DNA of 64,000 nt from Candidatus Cloacimonadales bacterium (GTDB taxonomy: Bacteria; Cloacimonadota; Cloacimonadia; Cloacimonadales; DAONDQ01): assembly GCA_963662275.1 (NCBI GenBank), contig OY759316.1, forward strand, positions 3,584,001 through 3,648,000, given 5' to 3'. The position numbers and the translations under genes are program-made. A model generated the notes under the pieces. The model did not search any database. It was not told where the DNA came from and was given only the letters and a program-made list of their open reading frames with translations. Position 1 is the first letter of the stretch. Every line of letters begins with the position of its first letter. This document shows positions 2,624 to 64,000 of this stretch, piece by piece.

Positions 2624-2659
2624 TTACCCTCCAATATTAGGTTGCAATGTATCTTTTCG

Positions 2660-2812
2660 ACCCCCCTACCCCCCTTCTCAAGGGGGGATATTTTTTGCTC
2701 CCACCTGGGAAGGATGTTTAATCAATCCCCCCTTGAGAAGAAGGATATTTTTTACTCCCACCTGATACGATGTTTAATCAATCCCCCCTTGGGAAGGGGG
2801 GTAGGGGGGTCT
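2660..2812. repeat. C/G-rich palindromic REP-like pair (CCCCCCTACCCCCCTTCTCAAGGGGGG ... CCCCCCTTGGGAAGGGGGGTAGGGGGG)
   Basis: Inverted pair of palindromes between DUF559 copies; recurs at 3255-3388, 3832-4095, 31021-31049, 63522-63548. Confidence 0.85.
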
Positions 2813-2816
2813 TTTT

Positions 2817-3218
2817 TCAGAACAGTGTCTCCAATCCCAGACTCTTTTCCCGTGCAATTAACTTTTCTTGTAAATCTTCGAAAATACCACCTATGTTCTC
2901 CAAAACATCATGATGTGCATATCTAATCACTATTATCCCGAATTCTCTAAGCAACTCGCTACGTTTTCTGTCATAACTCTCTTTCTCTCCGTGACTATCA
3001 CCATCAATTTCGATAGCAACCTTGAGTTTAGAGCAGTAAAAATCTACTATAAATGATGAAATTGGCTTTTGTTTTGTCCATTTATATCGGATTAGCTCCC
3101 TGTTAGATAAAATATTCGTCCACATTTTAATTTCAGCCGGATTACCCGCTTTACGGTTTTCTCTTGCATATTGTTTCAAGATAGGATCATAAGGAAATAT
3201 TCTTTCTTTATTATGCAT
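2817..3218 (-). CDS. DUF559 / Vsr-like endonuclease domain protein (intact copy 2)
   Basis: ARENRK..AEIKMW, QKPISSFIVDFYC..KVAIEIDGDSH..D..R motifs. Confidence 0.9.
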   Translation of the reverse strand: MHNKERIFPYDPILKQYARENRKAGNPAEIKMWTNILSNRELIRYKWTKQKPISSFIVDFYCSKLKVAIEIDGDSHGEKESYDRKRSELLREFGIIVIRYAHHDVLENIGGIFEDLQEKLIAREKSLGLETLF

Positions 3219-3393
3219 TTACCCTCCAATATTAGGTGCAAAGTATCTTTTCGACCCCCCTACCCCCCTTCTCAAGGGGGGATATTTTGCCGAAAAGGAT
3301 GTTTGATCAATCCCCGCTGTTAGCGTGATATAGAATGTACCACCTTGGGAATGATCAATCCCCCCTTGGGAAGGGGGGTAGGGGGGTCTTCTT

Positions 3394-3795
3394 TCAGAAC
3401 TGTGTCTCCAATCCCAGACTCTTTTCCCGTTCAATTAACTTTTCTTGTAAATCTTCGAAAATACCACCTATATTCTCCAAAACATCATGATGTGCATATC
3501 TAATCACTATTATCCCGAATTCTCTAAGCAACTCGCTACGTTTTCTGTCATAACTCTCTTTCTCTCCGTGGCTATCTCCATCAATTTCGATAGCAACCTT
3601 GAGTTTAGAGCAGTAAAAATCTACTATAAATGATGAAATTGTTTTTTGTTTTGTCCATTTATATCGGATTAGCTCCCTGTTAGATAAAATATTCGTCCAC
3701 ATCTTAATTTAAGCCGGATTACCCGCTTTACGGTTTTCTCTTGCATATTGTTTCAAGATAGGATCATAAGGAAATATTCTTTCTTTATTATGCAT
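3394..3795 (-). pseudogene. DUF559 endonuclease copy 3 (nonsense at codon 29)
   Basis: Full-length homology to copy 2 but TAA at 3709-3711 instead of GAA. Confidence 0.9.
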
Positions 3796-3831
3796 TTACC
3801 CTCCAATATTAGGTTGCAATGTATCTTTTCG

Positions 3832-4095
3832 ACCCCCCTACCCCCCTTCTCAAGGGGGGATATTTTTTTACTCACACCTGATACGATGTTTAATCAATCC
3901 CCCCTTGAGAAGAAGGATATTTTTTACTCCCACCTGCTACGATGTTTAATCAATCCCCCCTTGAGAAGAAGGATATTTTTTACTCCCACCTGATACGATG
4001 TTTAATCAATCCCCCCTTGAGAAGAAGGATATTTTTTACTCCCACCTGATACGATGTTTAATCAATCCCCCCTTGAGAAGGGGGGTAGGGGGGTC
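3832..4095. repeat. REP pair with internal ~57-bp tandem expansion (about 4 units)
   Basis: Repeated CACCTGATACGATGTTTAATCAATCCCCCCTTGAGAAGAAGGATATTTTTTACTCC. Confidence 0.85.
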
Positions 4096-7835: not shown

Positions 7836-8042
7836 TTTTCACCTCATACTTCATTTTTAATTTGTCATATTAAAAGGACAAATAGCTAATAAAGAAAATG
7901 ATGTCAATCTTTATCTTAACAATATATAAAGAGTTAGGAACATACTATGCTTTTCTTACCGTGTGACATACAGATGAGACATGTAGATGATATTATCTCA
8001 TAGAGGAATAACTGTAAAATACAACCTTTAAATTGGGAATTG

Positions 8043-8146
8043 GCAGAACAAACACCTAGCACCTAGCACCTAACACCTAGAACCTAACACCTAAAACCTA
8101 ACACCTAGAACCTAACACCTAGCACCTAGAACCTAGCACCTTCTGC
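8043..8146. repeat. Heptamer tandem array (ACCTAGC/ACCTAAC/ACCTAGA) bounded by GCAGAA...TTCTGC
   Basis: About 12 heptamers; overlaps 3' end of DUF374 gene. Confidence 0.9.
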
Positions 8147-8757
8147 AAAACACTTCCCGGCAGTCTTTTTAACTCATCCTGTATCTTTAATAGTGCAGCA
8201 GGTATCTCATCTTTGTTTTGAATATAAGTAGGTTCTCCATAATAGAGTTCAATTGTCGAAAATGGCTTGGGAATGCGGAACTTATCCCAGGAATTCACAA
8301 TCCATTCCCTGCTGATATGAACACCAATGGGAATAATGGGAGAACCGGATAGCAAAGCAAGATAAAGTACCCCATCGCTCATTTGTTCTGCAGGTCCTTT
8401 GGGTCCGTCAGGAGTGATTGCTACTACATGATTTTTAGCTAATTTCAGCATCTCTCGAAATGCTTGGCTTCCCCCTCTCGTGGAAGAACCGCGAGCAGTT
8501 GTATAGCCCAGCACTTGAGCTGGTCCAGCCACCAATTGACCATCTTTTGAGGAGGAAATCATCACCACACCATTTGTATAACGATGCTGAATCAGGAGAG
8601 GAAGTAAATTCCGATGCCAGAATACATAGATCACCGGTTGTGTTGTTGCACGGTTCTGTTTGATTTTGAAGTGTATGGTCAAATTCAATAGGAGAAGCAG
8701 CCAGGCTCCTAAGTATTTTTCTAATCTCAATCCAATGTACTCTAGGGTTTTGTACAT
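8119..8757 (-). CDS. DUF374 lysophospholipid acyltransferase family protein (LpxJ-like)
   Basis: FWH, SSSKDG, RGSSTRGG, ITPDGPKGP, SWDKFRIPKPFS; directly downstream of lpxB. Confidence 0.88.
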   Translation of the reverse strand: MYKTLEYIGLRLEKYLGAWLLLLLNLTIHFKIKQNRATTQPVIYVFWHRNLLPLLIQHRYTNGVVMISSSKDGQLVAGPAQVLGYTTARGSSTRGGSQAFREMLKLAKNHVVAITPDGPKGPAEQMSDGVLYLALLSGSPIIPIGVHISREWIVNSWDKFRIPKPFSTIELYYGEPTYIQNKDEIPAALLKIQDELKRLPGSVLQKVLGSRC

Positions 8758-11934: not shown

Positions 11935-12025
11935 GCAGAAGCGTACAGCGGACAGCGGACAGCGGACAGCGTACAGCGTACAGGTTCGAGGCAGAAGGTG
12001 CCAGATGCCAGGTGCCAGGTGTCAG
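11935..12025. repeat. Heptamer arrays (CAGCGGA/CAGCGTA; CCAGGTG), each starting at GCAGAAG
   Basis: Direct reading; similar array at 13148-13182. Confidence 0.8.
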
Positions 12026-12148: not shown

Positions 12149-13141
12149 ATGAAATTATATAACATTCTCCTGCTTTTCTGCTTTGCATTGTTACTTACTT
12201 CCTGCATTACTTCTCCAGACGGTCCACCGCAATATGATAGCTTTGTTTGTTGTATCAATGCAGATGGTACAGGTTTCCAAAAATTAATCAGTATCTCGCA
12301 ACTGCCATTTGAAATATCAAAATTATGGGATTTATATACAACGAAAAATGGAAAACTGATCTTTGCCGCTGATAAGTATTATATCAGCGAACCAGATACG
12401 ATTGCACCCGTACCTTTTATTGATATCAGAACAAATTTTGGGATAGGAATGACTTTATCAAATGATGATAAAGCCTATATATGTAGTAATGGTGATCTGT
12501 TCAAATACGATTTTCAAACACATAACCTAACTAATTTAACAGACGACTATCATGGATATCTTATGAACCCAAGAATATCAAATGATGATTCAATAATAAC
12601 AATGATTCAAAAAGATTCAATTTCATATAATCCAACGACTCTTTGTTATTACAAATTATTAGATTCAACTATTCATCTTTTACCAGAAGGGGGTTTATAT
12701 ACTCAGAATGGCATTTATTCTCCATCAGATAATAGGCTATATCATGAACAAAACAATGGGCTATACCGAATAAACTTGAATGGAGAAAATAACGAACATT
12801 TACTTTCCTATTCACCACTTTCATCAAAATCATTCAATCTGACATTTTATAACGATAATCTTATACTGATTAATTTATCCAACTTACTAAGTTTGTATGA
12901 TATTAACTCAGGTCTTGCTACTTTTACCCATCAATTGGATGCTCAAAATGAAATCAATGTAAAATGTACTAAAAATGCAAACAGGATATATTACACTGTT
13001 GGCAACAATATCTTTTATCATAATTTAGACGATCAAACTTCATTCAAGGTTCCAAATACTTCAGGTAGAGAATTTGCCATGTGCCCAACCTGGGATGGCA
13101 ATAAAATATATTATATTGCAAACTTAAGGATAAACAAATGA
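12149..13141 (+). CDS. Lipoprotein, TolB-like beta-propeller
   Basis: Lipobox LTSC; INADGTG, NLT..P.IS.D, INLNG, PTWDG repeats. Confidence 0.75.
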   Translation: MKLYNILLLFCFALLLTSCITSPDGPPQYDSFVCCINADGTGFQKLISISQLPFEISKLWDLYTTKNGKLIFAADKYYISEPDTIAPVPFIDIRTNFGIGMTLSNDDKAYICSNGDLFKYDFQTHNLTNLTDDYHGYLMNPRISNDDSIITMIQKDSISYNPTTLCYYKLLDSTIHLLPEGGLYTQNGIYSPSDNRLYHEQNNGLYRINLNGENNEHLLSYSPLSSKSFNLTFYNDNLILINLSNLLSLYDINSGLATFTHQLDAQNEINVKCTKNANRIYYTVGNNIFYHNLDDQTSFKVPNTSGREFAMCPTWDGNKIYYIANLRINK

Positions 13142-13306
13142 GAAACGGCAGAAGCGTACAGCATACAGCGGACAGCGTACAGGTGCAAACATTCCTCCCT
13201 TTGGTTAAAGGGATGGTTGTAGGGGCGTGCGGCAGTACGCCCGTCTTCCTGAGAGTTTGAGAGCTACATTACAACGAATTATCTGAATAAATAAATGGAG
13301 TTCAAA

Positions 13307-27934: not shown

Positions 27935-30430
27935 ATGAAGAAAATACTCTTATTACTAGTGATTGCAACCTTATTGATGACCTGCTTGTGGTCTGCTAAC
28001 CGGGTTATCGTTCGTTATGATAATCCAAGTACACAATTATTTCATCGTTTTTTAACAGAAAAAGCTGATATCGCAGCTTATCATCCCGGGATGTTCCTGG
28101 ATATAGTCGTTCCTCAAGAGCAAGTAACTCAATTACAGAATGAGTATCCTTCATTGCGCGTGATTCAGACCGAAGAACAAAGCCAGGCAAATCTTCACTC
28201 ACAGGAAAGGGATATTCCTGGCTATCGTTCCTATGATACAATGTTAACAGAATTACAAGCCATTGCTGCTGCACATCCTAATATCTGCCGATTATACAAT
28301 TTGGGAGAAACCTTGGGTAAACAGTATTTTGATGCAGGGAATAATCAGTATCAGCCGTATCAATTCAATATTTGGGCAATGAAAGTTTCCGATAATCCGG
28401 ATGTTGAAGAAGATGAACCCGGAGTTTATTATCTTGGACCTCATCATGCTCGCGAACCTCTTGCAGTTGAAGTAACCATGGAAATTCTGCATGAGCTTGT
28501 TGATAATTACGGTACGGATACTGAAATGACTGATCGAGTCAATAATATGCAGGTTTGGTTCGTCCCCCTGGTCAATCCTGATGGACATGAAGTTGTTTGG
28601 AGTGGTTTAGATATCTGGTGGCGTAAGAATATTCGAGATAATAACATCAATGGTGTTTTCGATAGCTATTATCAATATGGTTATGGTGAAGATGGTGTTG
28701 ACTTAAATCGCAATTATGGCACATATTGGGGTGCTCTGGGGGCAACAGATGATTTGTTCTCCCCTATATATCATGGAATCAGTGCTTTTTCTGAACCGGA
28801 AACCGTGATCATCAAGAACTTACTTGATTCTCATCATTTTGTTGCCGGTATCAGTTATCATACTTACGCCGGGCTTGTGCTCTACCCGACTGGATACTAC
28901 GTGGGAGCCAATGCTCCTGATTTTGATGCTTTACAAGCGTTAGCACAGGAAATGGCTGCTACAATACCGGATTATACAGCAGAATCAGAAGCTGAACTAT
29001 ATCCTGCCATGGGCGGAACGGATGACTATTCCTATGCAGAGCAAGGTACTTTTGCCTTCACCATAGAACTGGGAATCAATGAATTCATCCCACCTTCAGA
29101 GGAAATGAACGAGATCGTTGATCAAAATATGGATGCTGCCTTTATCCTAATGGATCGTGTTAAAACCTTATGTATCACAGGAATTGTTACAGATAGCCTG
29201 ACGAATCAACCCTTAGTTGCAACTATCACTGTCCCGGGAGTGGATAACCAGGGAGCCTATCGCAAACCATATCAAAGTGATGCTCAATATGGCAGATATT
29301 ATCGTTTGCTAGTTCCAAATTACCCGGTTATCAAATATTCTGCATACGGTTATAAGACAAAAACACAAGAAAATATATTACTGGATTTCGATGCACAAAC
29401 GATCATAGATTGCCAATTAGTTCCTGCCCTTCCTGCTTCTTTATCAGGAAGAGTAACGAGTGGTACTACCCTGGAAGCGATTTCCGGAGCAACTGTTAAG
29501 TTCCCTGGCACTCCAATTGGAGATACTGTGACTGATGCGAATGGGTATTTTACAATCACAAACACTTATGAAGGAACTTATACGATTGAAATCTACAAGG
29601 AAGGTTATGATTGGCTATGTGTTCCAGTGACTCTAAATGTCGGAGATAATCATATTGAATGGCAAATTCTGCTTCCTACCATCAATGTGACTTTTGAGTC
29701 CCCTTTGCAATGGATTACTACCGGATCATGGGTAACCACAACAGTGCAACATGTCTCCGGTTCACATTGCCTGACTGATAGCCAAGGTGATTACAGTGAA
29801 GTACCAGAATCAACAATAGCCCAATATCCTGTAGCAATTGATCTTCAAGATACACCGAATGTATCTGTTTCTTTTATGGTAAAGACGGATCTTCTCCAAA
29901 ATTATGATTATGTGAATTTTGAAGCCTCCAGGAATGGAACGGATTGGCTGACAATTGATTCCTATTACAATTCATCGAATTGGACACCAAAGACCTATAA
30001 TCTGAACCAATTCATACCTGGAAATCTGTATCTGCGTTTCCATATGGTCACAACGGGATACGGTATTGCAGATGGTATTTACATCGATGATTTTAAAGTA
30101 TTTTTGAACAGCCTTATTGTACCTGCAATTACGATTACACAGCCGGCATTGAAATTATCCTTACAGCAAAATAACCCGAATCCCTTTAATCCCGAAACCG
30201 CGATCAGCTATACAATACCAATGTCAGCCAATATCAGTCTGAATATCTTTAACATCAAAGGGCAAAAGGTTAGGACTCTTGTTTCCGAAAAACAGGAACG
30301 TGGAAATCACAGTATTCGTTGGGATGGAAAAGATGCATTAGGGAACAATGCTGCCTCTGGTGTTTATTTCTATCGACTTGATGCTGAAGGGCAGCCTTCT
30401 CAGACGAGGAAGATGCTGCTGCTGAAGTAG
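27935..30430 (+). CDS. Secreted M14 zinc carboxypeptidase with CarboxypepD_reg-like domains and FlgD-Ig CTD
   Basis: HHARE, VNPDG, WRKN, GVDLNRNY, SYHTY, FTIEL; NNPNPFNP tail. Confidence 0.92.
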   Translation: MKKILLLLVIATLLMTCLWSANRVIVRYDNPSTQLFHRFLTEKADIAAYHPGMFLDIVVPQEQVTQLQNEYPSLRVIQTEEQSQANLHSQERDIPGYRSYDTMLTELQAIAAAHPNICRLYNLGETLGKQYFDAGNNQYQPYQFNIWAMKVSDNPDVEEDEPGVYYLGPHHAREPLAVEVTMEILHELVDNYGTDTEMTDRVNNMQVWFVPLVNPDGHEVVWSGLDIWWRKNIRDNNINGVFDSYYQYGYGEDGVDLNRNYGTYWGALGATDDLFSPIYHGISAFSEPETVIIKNLLDSHHFVAGISYHTYAGLVLYPTGYYVGANAPDFDALQALAQEMAATIPDYTAESEAELYPAMGGTDDYSYAEQGTFAFTIELGINEFIPPSEEMNEIVDQNMDAAFILMDRVKTLCITGIVTDSLTNQPLVATITVPGVDNQGAYRKPYQSDAQYGRYYRLLVPNYPVIKYSAYGYKTKTQENILLDFDAQTIIDCQLVPALPASLSGRVTSGTTLEAISGATVKFPGTPIGDTVTDANGYFTITNTYEGTYTIEIYKEGYDWLCVPVTLNVGDNHIEWQILLPTINVTFESPLQWITTGSWVTTTVQHVSGSHCLTDSQGDYSEVPESTIAQYPVAIDLQDTPNVSVSFMVKTDLLQNYDYVNFEASRNGTDWLTIDSYYNSSNWTPKTYNLNQFIPGNLYLRFHMVTTGYGIADGIYIDDFKVFLNSLIVPAITITQPALKLSLQQNNPNPFNPETAISYTIPMSANISLNIFNIKGQKVRTLVSEKQERGNHSIRWDGKDALGNNAASGVYFYRLDAEGQPSQTRKMLLLK

Positions 30431-30438
30431 CAGGCAGA

Positions 30439-30993
30439 AGCTTACAGCGGACAGGTAACAGCTTACAGCGGACAGGTAACAGCTTACAGCGGACAGGTAA
30501 CAGCATACAGCGGACAGGTAACAGCATACAGCGGACAGGTAACAGCATACAGCGGACAGGTAACAGCATACAGCGGACAGGTAACAGCATACAGCGGACA
30601 GGTAACAGCATACAGCGGACAGGTAACTGCATACAGCGGACAGGTAACAGCATACAGCGGACAGGTAACAGCATACAGCGGACAGGTAACAGCATACAGC
30701 GGACAGGTAACAGCATACAGCGGACAGGTAACAGCATACAGCGGACAGGTAACAGCATACAGCGGACAGGTAACAGCATACAGCGGACAGGTAACAGCAT
30801 ACAGCGGACAGGTAACAGCATACAGCGGACAGGTAACAGCATACAGCGGACAGGTAACAGCATACAGCGGACAGGTAACAGCATACAGCGGACAGGTAAC
30901 AGCATACAGCGGACAGGTAACAGCATACAGCGGACAGGTAACAGCTTACAGCGGACAGGTAACAGCATACAGCGGACAGGTAACAGCTTACAG
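30439..30993. repeat. 26 x 21-bp tandem repeat (AGCWTACAGCGGACAGGTAAC; three heptamers per unit)
   Basis: 546 bp / 21 = 26 units plus a partial; starts 8 bp after the carboxypeptidase stop. Confidence 0.95.
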
Positions 30994-31063
30994 GCAGAGC
31001 AGAACTTGGCTTTAAAATATCCCCCCTTGGGAAGGGGGGCAGGGGGGTCAAATTCTGCTCTGC
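30994..31063. repeat. DUF559-type palindrome bracketed by 11-bp inverted repeat GCAGAGCAGAA...TTCTGCTCTGC
   Basis: IR at 30994-31004 and 31053-31063. Confidence 0.8.
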
Positions 31064-31635
31064 TTTTGTGTTTTTCATCTTAAAAGCTTCCCTCTTTTGA
31101 GCACAAGAGAGGGATGAGAGGGTGAGTTCGTGGTTGACTTTCTTCTCTGCAAATCTTAAATCTTAAATCTTAAATTCTGCCCCTCTTCTCTGTACTTCGC
31201 ACTTCGAAGTTCGAACTTCGCACTTCTCTCAGGATCCTCTCACAAATCTCTCACATCCTAAGAGATTTCTCACGCTATTTTCTGTGAATTCCATCCTCTT
31301 CCTCTCCGAATTTTCTTTCTGCTCTTTTTCCGAGCTATTCCCTACTCCCTATTCCCTTTTGCCCTTTTCTTTTCCGCTCTCTTTCCGCCCTGTTCGCTAT
31401 ACGCTATTCCCTTCTGCATATACTATCCGGACGGTTGTGGTTTTTTTTGTAGCTTACATTGGCAATGTGTTGTAACTGATAATGGTATTGTCAGATTTTC
31501 CATCAGGGATTGCCAATCCCCTCATACAACAGAATGCCATTCTATGTTACAATGCTGTGGCTATTTCCTTCAGATAATGTGTTTGCATGGTTTTGTAGCG
31601 CTTACTTCAGGATGTATCTGGTATGAAGAGCAGAC

Positions 31636-60168: not shown

Positions 60169-61503
60169 ATGATGAGAAAATTGTTTTATTCTTATTTTAT
60201 TTTAATCTTCTTAACCGGAATCTTCTCTTTATCTGCTCAAACCTACCAGGCAACACGTCTAGTAGAACGGAATAGTGTGGAACATGGTTCCATGTGCACA
60301 GATGATATCTGGGAATCTTATACAGATTACAAACGGGAGATTGTACATTATTCCTCACTACAGGCAGATGTGATTGATTCCGTGGAAGTATTAAGTAAGC
60401 GAATCCAAACAGGTTATCCAAATAACTGGGTTCCATACCAGACCTATGATTTCCATCCTTCAGTTACTTTGTTAAATGAGGGAAGGATCGTCAATTTCAA
60501 TATCACCAGTACCCTAGGATGGTTTCCCAATTCGATCGTTGAAGTGTATGATTCAATGAACCATCTCGTTATGGTACACAGAGATTATGTTCACGATAAC
60601 ATACATACGGGAATAAGAAAGACTCTTTCCTATTTACCGGATGGCAATATCGACAATACATCAAGCTTTATATATGGCTGGGATACTGAACCAGATCAAT
60701 ATCTCAAGACAGTTCCCAATTATGATAACCAAGGCAGAAGGCTCTATGAAATACAATATACATCTCCTGATTCGATAACTTGGACTCCGGTAACCAAGAC
60801 CATCTTCACGTATACAGGAGAGACATATCCCGAGGGTTTGGTATTTCATACTTACCACCCCTTATTTTGTTTTAGTTCCTTTAATAACTGGGGTTCTGTT
60901 TTCTATAATGATGTTCCGGGTTTGCAAACTCCTTATGTAATAGATTCACTGGTCGTGCAACATTACTCCGATGGACAGTGGGCGGATAGTTTATATACTG
61001 ATTACCAGGTGAATCATTCGACAGGAAACGGATATGGATTTCAAACACGGGAGATCAATCTGACCATACCATTACCCATCGATGCTCAATACAAGCGAAT
61101 GAATTTTTATTTCCATGAAAATGGATATTATAACGGTGAATCCTATAGTATAGATGATGGACTCGCTCCACCTTGGGATCAAAGTATCAGCTATGCGTGG
61201 GAAGAGATAACTCCCAATCACGAACAAATTGCTATTCCTCAATCGGAAATCAGGATTGCTTGTTACCCGAATCCTTTTCAAATTAATCTGAATATCGTAC
61301 TTTCCAGCAAAGGAAACCAACCTACTGAGATATCAATCTATAACATCAGAGGGCAATTGGTAAGAAGTTGGCATCAAGTAAAAGGGAAAGAACTTACTTG
61401 GGATGGATTTGACAAGAATAAAAAGCATTCTCCTACTGGCATATATTTCATCAAGGCTCAACAAGGTAAAAGTGAAACCGTTAGGAAGTTCGTTAAAATG
61501 TAG
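60169..61503 (+). CDS. Secreted protein with FlgD-Ig/T9SS-like CTD
   Basis: Signal peptide; CYPNPF, IYNIRGQLV, GIYFIK. Confidence 0.82.
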   Translation: MMRKLFYSYFILIFLTGIFSLSAQTYQATRLVERNSVEHGSMCTDDIWESYTDYKREIVHYSSLQADVIDSVEVLSKRIQTGYPNNWVPYQTYDFHPSVTLLNEGRIVNFNITSTLGWFPNSIVEVYDSMNHLVMVHRDYVHDNIHTGIRKTLSYLPDGNIDNTSSFIYGWDTEPDQYLKTVPNYDNQGRRLYEIQYTSPDSITWTPVTKTIFTYTGETYPEGLVFHTYHPLFCFSSFNNWGSVFYNDVPGLQTPYVIDSLVVQHYSDGQWADSLYTDYQVNHSTGNGYGFQTREINLTIPLPIDAQYKRMNFYFHENGYYNGESYSIDDGLAPPWDQSISYAWEEITPNHEQIAIPQSEIRIACYPNPFQINLNIVLSSKGNQPTEISIYNIRGQLVRSWHQVKGKELTWDGFDKNKKHSPTGIYFIKAQQGKSETVRKFVKM

Positions 61504-61822: not shown

Positions 61823-62007
61823 ATATCCTGAAGCTTGTAACTTTTGGAGTCTGCACCTTCCAGAGTTATTGGGATGCAATCCCAACAATATAACAGCTTG
61901 CAAAGCTATGGTACGATGCAGATTCCGATAATACCATTATCGGTTACAACACATTACCAATGTAAGTTACAAGCATTTCGCAAAAGGCAAAAAGGGAAAA
62001 CTATAAA

Positions 62008-62895
62008 TCAAGGGGAAATCCTGACCAAGCGAAAGCCTATATCGCCGTAGCTGTAAGTCGAAGTGCTGTAGCTCCGAATGGAAACGGCGCAGTTGTTGTC
62101 ATTGCTGTACCAGCCACCGCCGCGTAGCACACGGTATGACCCGCTGACAGCGCCATGCGGGTTGGTCTGTGCACTACCCGGATAAGCACCATAAATGTCC
62201 CAATTCCACTCCCAGATGTTGCCACTCATATCATATAAGTCCAGTTCATTGGCTGTTTTCGTTCCAACTGTGTGACTCGTGCCACCAGAGTTATCACCAT
62301 ACCAAGCCACAATACCTAGCGTGTTACTGCCACTATAGGTATAACCATGAGTTGAGTTTCCACCCTTTGCAGCAAACTCCCATTCCGCTTCCGTAGGTAG
62401 ACGATAGCCATTGGCTGTCCAACTACAGGAGACATTGGTGTGATTGTTATAGTCTGTGTTCCAACCTGCAGGCCAGTCTGCAGGATTAGTCCCATAAGTA
62501 CTATAACTGTAGCAGGGAGTTATACCTTCATTCAAGCTGCGCCTGTTGCAATACTCAATGGTATTGAACCAGGAAACCTGTTCAACTGGTCCATTGGTCA
62601 CGCCAGTGAAATAGGAAGGATTCACTCCCATCACTGTCTGATAAGCAGACTGTGTCAGCTCATACTTATCCATGTAAAAGGAGGATACAGTTACATCAGA
62701 TGTGCCGTTATTGAAAGTACCGCCTGGAACAAGGATCATCTGGACAGGAGTTGTTCCCTGGCTGAAAGTGATATCCGTGATTTCATTCAGATTAAAAGTG
62801 GTTGTACCGTTTGTAGTATGCACATTCATCTGAGTCTGCGCAAAAAGAAAAGATGTAAAAAGTATAAGGCAGCTAATCAATAATATTTTGTACAT
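62008..62895 (-). CDS. Secreted formylglycine-generating-enzyme-like (SUMF1/C-lectin fold) protein, putative DGR target
   Basis: PVEQVSW, YRLPTEAEWEFAA, LYDMSGNIWEW, RVLRGGGW...IGFRLVR. Confidence 0.9.
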   Translation of the reverse strand: MYKILLISCLILFTSFLFAQTQMNVHTTNGTTTFNLNEITDITFSQGTTPVQMILVPGGTFNNGTSDVTVSSFYMDKYELTQSAYQTVMGVNPSYFTGVTNGPVEQVSWFNTIEYCNRRSLNEGITPCYSYSTYGTNPADWPAGWNTDYNNHTNVSCSWTANGYRLPTEAEWEFAAKGGNSTHGYTYSGSNTLGIVAWYGDNSGGTSHTVGTKTANELDLYDMSGNIWEWNWDIYGAYPGSAQTNPHGAVSGSYRVLRGGGWYSNDNNCAVSIRSYSTSTYSYGDIGFRLVRISP

Positions 62896-62904
62896 CGTAT
62901 GCTC

Positions 62905-63357
62905 CTATTTTAACATCAGCATTTTATTGACTTTGATTTGGTCATTGCACTTGACCTTATAAATATAAGGACCCGTGGCACATGCTTTCCCGGTTTCATT
63001 CAAGCCGTTCCAGGTCAGTTCGTGTACTCCTTTAGTCATATACTCTTTTGCCAGAACCTTTACCAATTGCCCTCTAATGTTATAAATTGCTACTTCTGTC
63101 TGATACGGTTCCGACAATTCAAACTTGATTATGGTTGAGGGATTAAACGGATTGGGGTAATTGGTTAAAAACTTAATGGGGACTTTAGACAGGAACGCAA
63201 CCCAATCATTATTGGAGACATTGCTGAAATTGATCTGCTGAATATCCTGAACCTGGAACTCCGCAGTAGTTCCATTTGTGAGATGGACATACATGACATC
63301 ACAATACAACAGAAACGGAATCAGAATTAATAAAACGAGGAATATAACTCTGAACAT
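62905..63357 (-). CDS. Small secreted protein: short N-terminal module + FlgD-Ig CTD
   Basis: Signal peptide; NYPNPFNP, IYNIRGQLV, KMLMLK; GGAGG RBS. Confidence 0.85.
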   Translation of the reverse strand: MFRVIFLVLLILIPFLLYCDVMYVHLTNGTTAEFQVQDIQQINFSNVSNNDWVAFLSKVPIKFLTNYPNPFNPSTIIKFELSEPYQTEVAIYNIRGQLVKVLAKEYMTKGVHELTWNGLNETGKACATGPYIYKVKCNDQIKVNKMLMLK

Positions 63358-63521
63358 ACAAACCTCCTTGCTGGTGATATTGGGTTATCTATCAACCAGG
63401 ATAAAACGTATTAACAAACTTGTTTTAATTACTAGTTCAATTAGTAAAAATTTAAGTTACTTAGTCAATATCTAAATTTGCAGCAGAAGGGGACAGGTTC
63501 AAGATGAATAGCAGAAATAGA

Positions 63522-64000
63522 CCCCCCTACCCCCCTTCTCAAGGGGGGATAATCATTAACGCCCCCCTTCTCAATGGGAAACTATCCTAAAAATCCTCCC
63601 TTCTCAAGGGAAAACTATCCTTAAAATCCCCCTCCTCAAGGGGAAACTATCCTTAAAATCCCCCTTCTCAAGGGGAAACTATCCTTAAAATCCCCCTTCT
63701 CAATGGGAAACTATCCTAAAAATCCTCCCTTCTCAAGGGAAAACTATCCTTAAAATCCCCCTTCTCAATGGGAAACTATCCTAAAAATCCTCCCTTCTCA
63801 AGGGAAAACTATCCTTAAAATCCCCCTTCTCAAGGGGAAACTATCCTAAAAATCCTCCCTTCTCAAGGGGAAACTATCCTTAAAATCCCCCTTCTCAAGG
63901 GGAAACTATCCTTAAAATCCTCCCTTCTCAAGGGGGAAACTATCCTTAAAATCCCCCCTTCTCAAGGGGAAACTATCCTTAAAATCCCCCTCCTCAAGGG
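63522..64000. repeat. DUF559-type palindrome followed by ~14 x 32-33-bp tandem repeat (runs off window)
   Basis: Unit CCCCCTTCTCAAGGGGAAACTATCCTTAAAAT with recurring variants; no unique spacers. Confidence 0.92.

Follow-up and report, generated by a model that had tools for sequence, protein, structure and literature searches.

A gene pair of a Cloacimonadales bacterium that may form a split type IX secretion substrate

In a window of 64,000 nucleotides from the genome of a Candidatus Cloacimonadales bacterium (assembly GCA_963662275.1, contig OY759316.1, positions 3,584,001 to 3,648,000 of the forward strand) we analyzed two adjacent genes, an adaptor made up of little besides a C-terminal sorting domain (CTD) for a type IX secretion system (T9SS), and a cargo with an FGE-sulfatase domain and no CTD. 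Behind their signal peptides both proteins begin with a mini-domain of the same family, hereafter also called the unit. We propose that the adaptor supplies the T9SS CTD in trans, the two genes together forming a "split" type IX secretion substrate, and we give this proposal an even chance of being right. The gene architecture, the homology of the mini-domains, the conserved adjacency, the failure to find fused forms among the proteins sampled, and the presence of T9SS parts in the genome are observations, and they are laid out below before the route that we build on them.

Architecture of the pair and homology of its mini-domains

A preliminary description, made from the letters of the window, had placed the two genes on the same strand, 9 bp apart, and had counted 13 of 24 identical residues after the signal peptides; both statements were borne out (Table 1), the alignment having 24 aligned positions and one gap. 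The Sec signal peptide of the adaptor is recognized by its hydrophobic N-terminus and a helix predicted at residues 2-17, and a linker of ~18 residues separates the mini-domain from the CTD. Residues 67-146 were matched by TIGR04183 (37 bits, cut-off 23) and PF13860 FlgD_ig (38.8 bits, cut-off 27), PF18962 staying marginally below its cut-off of 27 with 26.4 bits; outside these residues no further Pfam or NCBIfam match was obtained, as expected from the earlier claim that the first protein is otherwise sorting CTD only. The cargo matched PF03781 with an E value of 3.7e-39 (cut-off 23.3 bits), no NCBIfam equivalog exceeded its cut-off, and the Pfam and NCBIfam searches gave no CTD match, so that the second protein indeed appears as the CTD-less partner it had been taken for. 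T9SS cargos are described as bearing the CTD themselves in the available parts of two papers (PMC8545088; PMC10202324). The cargo was also considered as a lipoprotein, a candidate that was rejected, its Cys at residue 9 being unconserved (Ser in one paralogue).

Table 1. Features of the adaptor-cargo pair; positions are those of the window.
Feature	Position	Strand	Content or evidence
Adaptor gene	62905..63357	minus	150 aa: signal peptide, mini-domain, linker, T9SS type-A CTD; open reading frame, Pfam, NCBIfam, AlphaFold2
Adaptor mini-domain, residues ~21-48, directly behind the signal peptide	63214..63297	minus	profile match at genome 3647214-3647294 = window 63214-63294
Adaptor T9SS type-A C-terminal sorting domain, residues 67-150	62908..63159	minus	TIGR04183 and PF13860 above cut-offs
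9-bp intergenic spacer between adaptor and cargo	62896..62904	minus	same length in 5/5 cassette copies of the genome
Cargo gene	62008..62895	minus	295 aa: signal peptide, mini-domain, FGE-sulfatase / C-type-lectin-like domain, no CTD
Cargo mini-domain, residues 23-48	62752..62829	minus	profile match at genome 3646752-3646829
Cargo FGE-sulfatase domain, residues 52-292, reaching the C-terminus	62020..62742	minus	PF03781, 135.4 bits
Hypervariable cargo C-terminal stretch, gene nt 769-885	62011..62127	minus	paralogue comparison
Conserved 45-58-nt element with 8-bp hairpin, 3' of the cargo stop, part of the duplicated cassette	61915..61972	minus	

The relationship between the two mini-domains was examined in the whole genome (4.38 Mb, a single contig) through a six-frame set of 13,929 open reading frames (ORFs), to which the E values of this paragraph refer. 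With the cargo mini-domain as phmmer query, the CTD proteins of the adjacent type were the next-best matches (E 0.047-0.13), and a profile built from both mini-domain types matched 11 ORFs, namely five adaptors and six FGE proteins, the next ORF having an E of 0.37. An independent profile was made from 15 adaptors of other phyla, with no cargo and no sequence of this genome; it recovered the five own adaptors at E 3e-10 to 4e-8 and, directly after them, exactly the six FGE proteins at E 1.7e-6 to 1.9e-3, the next ORF lying at 0.24. The mini-domains of adaptor and cargo are thus homologous, with a similarity beyond chance. Adaptor and cargo units have ~50% of their residues in common, they occupy the mature N-terminus in both kinds of protein, and each protein carries one to three copies without simple stoichiometry. 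Moreover, for each of the 11 mini-domains of this genome, the better-scoring Calditrichota profile was that of its own role, adaptor or cargo. No Pfam or NCBIfam family matched the mini-domain, a PDB sequence search with its profile gave a best E of 0.79, and the search of the ESM Atlas with adaptor residues 19-62 was uninformative (best score 0.76).

The two-gene cassette is present in five copies in the genome, always with the adaptor first and always with the same 9-bp gap. Similarity between the copies extends at the DNA level from ~50 nt upstream of the adaptor to 90-120 nt past the cargo stop, therefore adaptor and cargo duplicate as a unit; comparison of the limits of the five copies revealed no conserved third gene. 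In two of them, m4 and m5, identity with the window copy reaches 85-86% over the adaptor and the first ~180 nt of the cargo and only 66-68% over the FGE body, which indicates that the head recombines or is exchanged as a block. Such block exchange would speak for a reading in which the common N-terminus merely results from duplicated or recombined 5' ends of genes, with no functional link between the proteins; we hold this explanation to be extremely improbable, since the adaptor and cargo units are only ~50% identical, keep their role signatures across phyla in the case of this genome, and stay adjacent over four lineages with unrelated cargo bodies, as described in the next section.

The genome encodes 34 FGE-domain ORFs and 252 CTD ORFs, none of them having both domains. 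In 29 of the 34 the FGE domain is located at the very C-terminus, and in four more it ends 6-12 residues short of it; conversely, the mini-domain is found in five of the 252 CTD ORFs, all of 149-150 aa. The absence of the CTD from all FGE ORFs, together with the terminal position of the domain, fits the conflict between a C-terminal variable region (VR) and a C-terminal sorting signal that had been suggested for the window pair. Of note, at least eight FGE paralogues have a different common N-terminal module after the signal peptide (for instance genome 2269172-2270293, 3036192-3037280 and 3951846-3952943), and further paralogues have lipoprotein-like signals at the N-terminus; FGE proteins of this genome therefore use at least three N-terminal mounting strategies (mini-domain, second module and lipoprotein type), never a CTD.

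Conservation of the pairing within and beyond the phylum

When the adaptor was used as query against relatives of the same order, 41 of 41 genomes matched through the CTD, a short ORF spanning the whole query being found in only 11. Nine loci were examined (L010-L017 and L019), the cargo of L011 being counted from extended DNA of that locus. In each, the next gene lies on the strand of the adaptor and starts 3-18 nt downstream of it; its product opens with a signal peptide and then the unit, which a hidden Markov model (HMM) detected on eight of the nine next genes at E <= 1, five of these at E <= 0.01; on the ninth (L019/L138) it was recognized by eye only. Several of these adaptors have two tandem units. 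The cargo bodies are diverse and comprise FGE-sulfatase (L010, L012, L017 and L137), Laminin_G_3 (L013) and CpeT (L015), with weak matches to polysaccharide-lyase-like (L014) and Ig-like (L019) domains, and no CTD match was found in any of them. In L138 (G039:C4, 1366-4322) two CTD-less genes in a row (400 and 399 aa), each starting with a diverged unit, come after a single two-unit adaptor; the number of adaptor units may sometimes match the number of cargos, a pattern into which L140, with one adaptor unit and three cargo units, does not fit.

In a wider sample of the phylum the unit was detected at E <= 1e-4 in 27 of 232 genomes, with 67 hits, 49 of which fall into 22 clusters that each extend across two adjacent ORFs. 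A region search with the cargo N-terminus returned 10 close relatives only, and a family-level search around G043 found nothing.

Outside the phylum, a database search for homologues of near-adaptor length gave 660 proteins at E <= 1e-10. The unit was present in 83 of the best 120 (median 151 aa, unit start at about residue 22), and the carriers include proteins named by their source as Caldithrix abyssi, Ignavibacterium and Marinimicrobia. The cultivable Caldithrix abyssi DSM 13497 has an adaptor homologue in Calab_0829. Among 151 Calditrichota genomes, 12 matched at E <= 1e-30 and seven had short full-length adaptor ORFs, and in 7/7 of these adaptor loci the unit stands at the start of the downstream gene, whose body is Fib_succ_major, Cthe_2159, Laminin_G_3, DUF6923 or of no family. 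In 151 genomes of Ignavibacteria four adaptor loci were found, with a unit-bearing downstream gene in three of them by HMM and in the fourth by eye. In one metagenome-assembled genome (MAG) of Marinimicrobia, the gene of a two-unit adaptor lies 8 nt ahead of one for a protein of 866 aa that has two units as well as beta-propeller-like and multihaem cytochrome matches. Across all lineages examined the cargos had no CTD match and their bodies were unrelated. The adjacency, for which the preliminary description had proposed a search, is therefore kept in 5/5 adaptors of the genome and across several phyla. A search of genome contigs with the adaptor alignment, run through the generic pattern NYPNPFNP, recovered the mini-domain in one of 80 loci (L070), and a search of five genome entries with the full adaptor profile was swamped by ordinary CTD proteins.

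Fused forms were sought among longer adaptor homologues (264-2000 aa). The unit was found in none of the best 120, all of them matched through the CTD (best E 0.24), and PF03781 was likewise absent from the precomputed domains of these 120 proteins; 15 of the 16 with organism names were Cloacimonadota-type MAGs. This search was word-limited and therefore gives weak evidence for the absence of a fused form; its result agrees with the 5/252 CTD ORFs with a unit in the own genome. In the samples examined, the combination of mini-domain and CTD is confined to short, "empty" proteins (83/120 near-length against 0/120 longer homologues).

These results also bear on the possibility that the mini-domain of both proteins binds a common third partner, some other component of the envelope, in which case adaptor and cargo would not be in contact and the adaptor may compete or regulate. 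The invariable position of the mini-domain at the mature N-terminus of both proteins, and its one to three copies per protein without simple stoichiometry, would suit such a partner. Nevertheless we consider it unlikely, as it leaves unexplained both why the mini-domain was seen on none of the long CTD proteins sampled and the adaptor-cargo adjacency across phyla, and no conserved third gene is seen in the cassette.

Secretion machinery, proposed route and known systems

The T9SS components on which the adaptor would depend, SprA and the PorU sortase, are both encoded in the genome: SprA scored 282.6 bits with its best piece and 456.3 with neighbouring pieces in frame (cut-off 200), and PorU 582 bits (cut-off 420). 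An AlphaFold2 model of the window adaptor (33-row alignment, mean pLDDT 81) shows the signal helix at 2-17, a hairpin of strands 21-25 and 31-35, a helix at 49-57 and a CTD beta-sandwich at 61-149 (pLDDT > 90); the expected third strand of its single unit (39-48) is modelled as unpaired coil. In contrast, for the natural tandem-unit adaptor of L010 the model from a 7-row alignment has six strands (22-27, 30-35, 39-45, 48-53, 58-62 and 66-71) at pLDDT 85-89. This difference between the two models fits the idea that units may complete one another. With the L010 model, Foldseek retrieved matches to the CTD part only, namely FlgD Ig-like domains and PorZ and PorU entries. A complex prediction with mature cargo (21-295) and mature adaptor (20-150) on custom alignments gave scores of 0.14 and 0.11 against a mark of 0.32 and returned no verdict.

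The route that we propose would run as follows. Sec would bring both adaptor and cargo into the periplasm, where either protein in its mature form starts with a unit of ~27 residues in three putative beta-strands, and the adaptor unit would pair with the cargo unit, probably by beta-sheet extension. The type-A CTD of the adaptor would then bring the complex to the SprA translocon, and PorU would cut off the CTD, leaving a stub of ~45 residues (mini-domain and linker) fixed on the cell surface, where it would hold the cargo non-covalently. The C-terminus of the cargo would stay free, and in the FGE or C-type-lectin-like fold this is the variable and presumably ligand-binding end. The adaptor family would be generic, one family serving unrelated cargo domains in several phyla of the Fibrobacteres-Chlorobi-Bacteroidetes (FCB) group. 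Supply of the CTD in trans is the simplest reading because the carrier has, besides its CTD, only the unit, its neighbour shares that unit and has no CTD, no fused forms were found, and the cargos are unrelated over four lineages. In its broader form, a widespread modular branch of the T9SS in which adaptors of ~150 residues lend their secretion and anchoring domain, through a three-strand docking unit, to CTD-less cargos of many folds, we put it forward with middling confidence.

Several points weigh against this proposal. PorV was found only as a homologue below cut-off, with 152 bits against 250, and to our knowledge, and by a literature search, co-export of a non-covalent complex by the T9SS has not been demonstrated to date. 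We infer adaptor-cargo binding, like co-translocation and anchoring, from comparative evidence, and the pairing within tandem units from secondary structure and pLDDT alone. Furthermore, a sixth FGE gene with the mini-domain (genome 457565-458524) has no adjoining adaptor, and in the order relatives the role signatures are mixed, 11 of 17 units being assigned the expected role. In the phylum sample, 18 of 40 clusters show the mini-domain in a single ORF (three at contig ends, one a known pair with a weak cargo match, the rest unexplained), and the spread is patchy, with 27/232 genomes of the phylum and 0/98 in the largest sampled family. A homologue of PorV-like outer-membrane proteins (50.5 bits, below cut-off), encoded at genome 4327457-4328410, is close to cassette copy 3 (4325103-4326449), from which it lies 1 kb downstream, and not to the window copy.

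The adaptor might also act as a surface dock without co-export, a T9SS-anchored peg that captures through the mini-domains a cargo which leaves the periplasm otherwise, by vesicles, lysis or another system. This account rests on the same comparative pairing evidence as the supply of the CTD in trans and avoids the undemonstrated export of a complex through SprA; however, the cargos have a Sec-type signal peptide only, with no conserved lipobox at the Cys 9 that is Ser in one paralogue, they carry no CTD, and no alternative route is evident, so that we judge it improbable.

Compared with the canonical type-A route of the T9SS, in which the CTD is fused to the passenger, PorV acts as shuttle, PorU as sortase, and the product is anchored through anionic lipopolysaccharide (A-LPS), the adaptor is alike in its signal peptide and type-A CTD and in belonging to a genome with SprA and PorU. 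It differs in that its own passenger amounts to a 27-aa unit and a linker, the real passenger being a separate, CTD-less protein. In cellulosomes, cohesins and dockerins are small conserved docking modules that mount diverse proteins on a surface-anchored carrier; the principle of mounting by a docking module would be the same here, whereas there is no homology, and each cargo gene has one adaptor gene in place of a multi-site scaffold. A parallel for the route itself may be the hitchhiker mechanism of the Tat pathway, in which the small subunit of hydrogenase carries the signal for the large subunit, as stated in the available part of a paper that cites Rodrigue et al. 1999 (PMC9251779). As in that mechanism and in peroxisomal piggyback import, the signal on one subunit would carry a signal-less partner as a folded complex; unlike them, our system would use another machinery, membrane and signal, its carrier is a dedicated mini-protein and not a functional subunit, and there is no homology.

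Conserved gene pairs that tie a T9SS cargo to a surface-anchoring partner are also known from type-B CTD cargos with adjacent PorP/SprF-like anchor genes, as far as the part of the source available to us describes them (PMC9143113); there the type-B CTD belongs to the cargo, with an outer-membrane barrel as its partner, whereas here the partner has a type-A CTD and the cargo none. The accessible part of a further source describes PorA of Porphyromonas gingivalis as a small CTD protein of 246 aa whose CTD is the ligand of PorY (PMC12152298). PorA resembles the adaptor as a small, CTD-dominated protein with a role other than enzyme or adhesin, and a comparable signal protein, reporting T9SS status to a regulator and merely co-expressed with a secreted protein, may thus be thought of for the adaptor. 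We regard this as very unlikely: by the same partial source and by architecture only, PorA has a larger N-terminal domain (~135 residues ahead of the CTD, against a 27-aa unit here), a single copy, a regulatory function and no matching partner domain, and five adaptor copies, each linked to a single cargo with a matching N-terminal unit, go beyond the need of a single regulatory ligand.

The statement of the preliminary description that such a display system was not recognised as described agrees with our literature search, which, subscription-only papers lying outside its scope, covered piggyback, hitchhiker, CTD-less and in-trans cargos of the T9SS, the combination of a diversity-generating retroelement (DGR) with the T9SS, and the T9SS of Cloacimonadota, and found no description of such an adaptor.

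Variable cargo end, surroundings of the pair and implications

Comparison among the three closest paralogues gave variable-site fractions at codon positions 1, 2 and 3 of 0.14/0.12/0.49 for nt 1-768 of the cargo gene and of 0.54/0.44/0.31 for nt 769-885 (Fisher p 1.7e-7 against the rest). Thus the last ~39 codons are hypervariable, with NNC-like variation mostly at codon positions 1 and 2, seen between paralogues only; this pattern is either a DGR-like footprint or the result of strong diversifying selection. Variable proteins of DGRs with a C-type-lectin or FGE fold include lipoprotein-anchored targets, and the cargo resembles them in its C-terminal FGE-type domain with a hypervariable end and in its putative N-terminal anchoring; it departs from them in that the complete genome has neither template repeat nor DGR reverse transcriptase (RT). 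A template repeat for the variable stretch was sought genome-wide by short-word BLAST and by an adenine-tolerant ungapped scan and none was found, the best non-self window of the scan having at least 26 non-adenine mismatches in 132 nt. No DGR RT was present among 18 RVT_1 hits, and no DGR genes lie 3' of the FGE cargos in two relatives (G024 and G030).

Sixteen of the RVT_1 hits belong to multi-copy ORFs of 444-465 aa, for which copy number and the one model test suggest a group II intron type, and one further ORF (412-aa frame, 397-aa ORF) matched a group II intron RT/maturase model directly. These 17 group II intron-type ORFs (frames of 412-465 aa) include sets of identical-scoring copies, one copy lying at genome 3649746-3651098, 1.7 kb past the window end, and they point to a heavy mobile-intron load in the genome. 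The remaining hit is an 893-aa ORF with a weak match (genome 3092718-3095399), beside a tandem repeat array (3091197-3092284) whose repeats are spaced by 72 and 126 nt; adenines account for 10 of 14 mismatches in one repeat pair, and the layout is not that of a classic DGR.

Contigs from four sequencing runs of two studies showed 0 differences over window positions 61900-62455, with one contig per run and contigs losing rare variants; the contigs were otherwise mostly cross-mapped paralogues, and this comparison is the sole usable one. Since no template repeat, no DGR RT and no contig variation were found, we treat the cargo end as inter-paralogue hypervariability, and its DGR origin is unproven. 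Of the earlier claim of a VR-like C-terminus, the hypervariability is hence retained, whereas the DGR framing is not supported. Nor is the pairing specific to VR-bearing proteins, the cargos including LamG, CpeT, Cthe_2159, beta-propeller and multihaem cytochrome proteins.

The 45-58-nt element downstream of the cargo (Table 1) has 12 copies in the genome, with an inverted copy at window 31447-31504. Five copies share the strand of an FGE gene and lie no more than 200 nt downstream of it, and several others are in the neighbourhood of FGE genes. Its fold z-score of -1.43 is not significant and no U-tract is present; the element may be either a terminator carried along with the gene or a target site. 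A promoter and terminator scan gave a number of sites not above that in shuffled sequences.

Window 63498-64000, immediately upstream of the adaptor, is occupied by a tandem array (at least 12 copies of a 32-33-nt unit) that runs past the window end, and it has a C-rich/G-rich palindromic motif in common with window repeats at 2643-3866 and 31018-31059. A long array of 21-nt units (at least 26 register-shifted copies, 97% identity) is located at window 30305-31102, and 7-nt-based repeats resembling it are found at 11940-12009, 13139-13215 and 8037-8155. Convergent with the cargo gene, window 60169-61503 (plus strand) encodes a protein of 444 aa that carries an ordinary CTD in cis (PF18962, 44.9 bits) and whose CTD-coding region is 85% complementary over 40 nt to that of the adaptor.

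If the adaptor does supply the CTD in trans, a hitchhiker route and a mounting system of cohesin-dockerin kind would for the first time be described for the T9SS, which would then be able to carry non-covalent complexes, and the display of proteins whose working end is the C-terminus would be explained. For surface display in Bacteroidota-type hosts, the two units would also be a natural docking pair of very small size, and the hypothesis is directly testable with two small proteins. The prediction of T9SS cargos depends on a CTD found on the cargo itself; if the tag can come from a small partner, current counts of secreted and surface proteins fall short in many bacteria of the FCB group, with lectin-like binders, carbohydrate-binding proteins and multihaem cytochromes among those overlooked.

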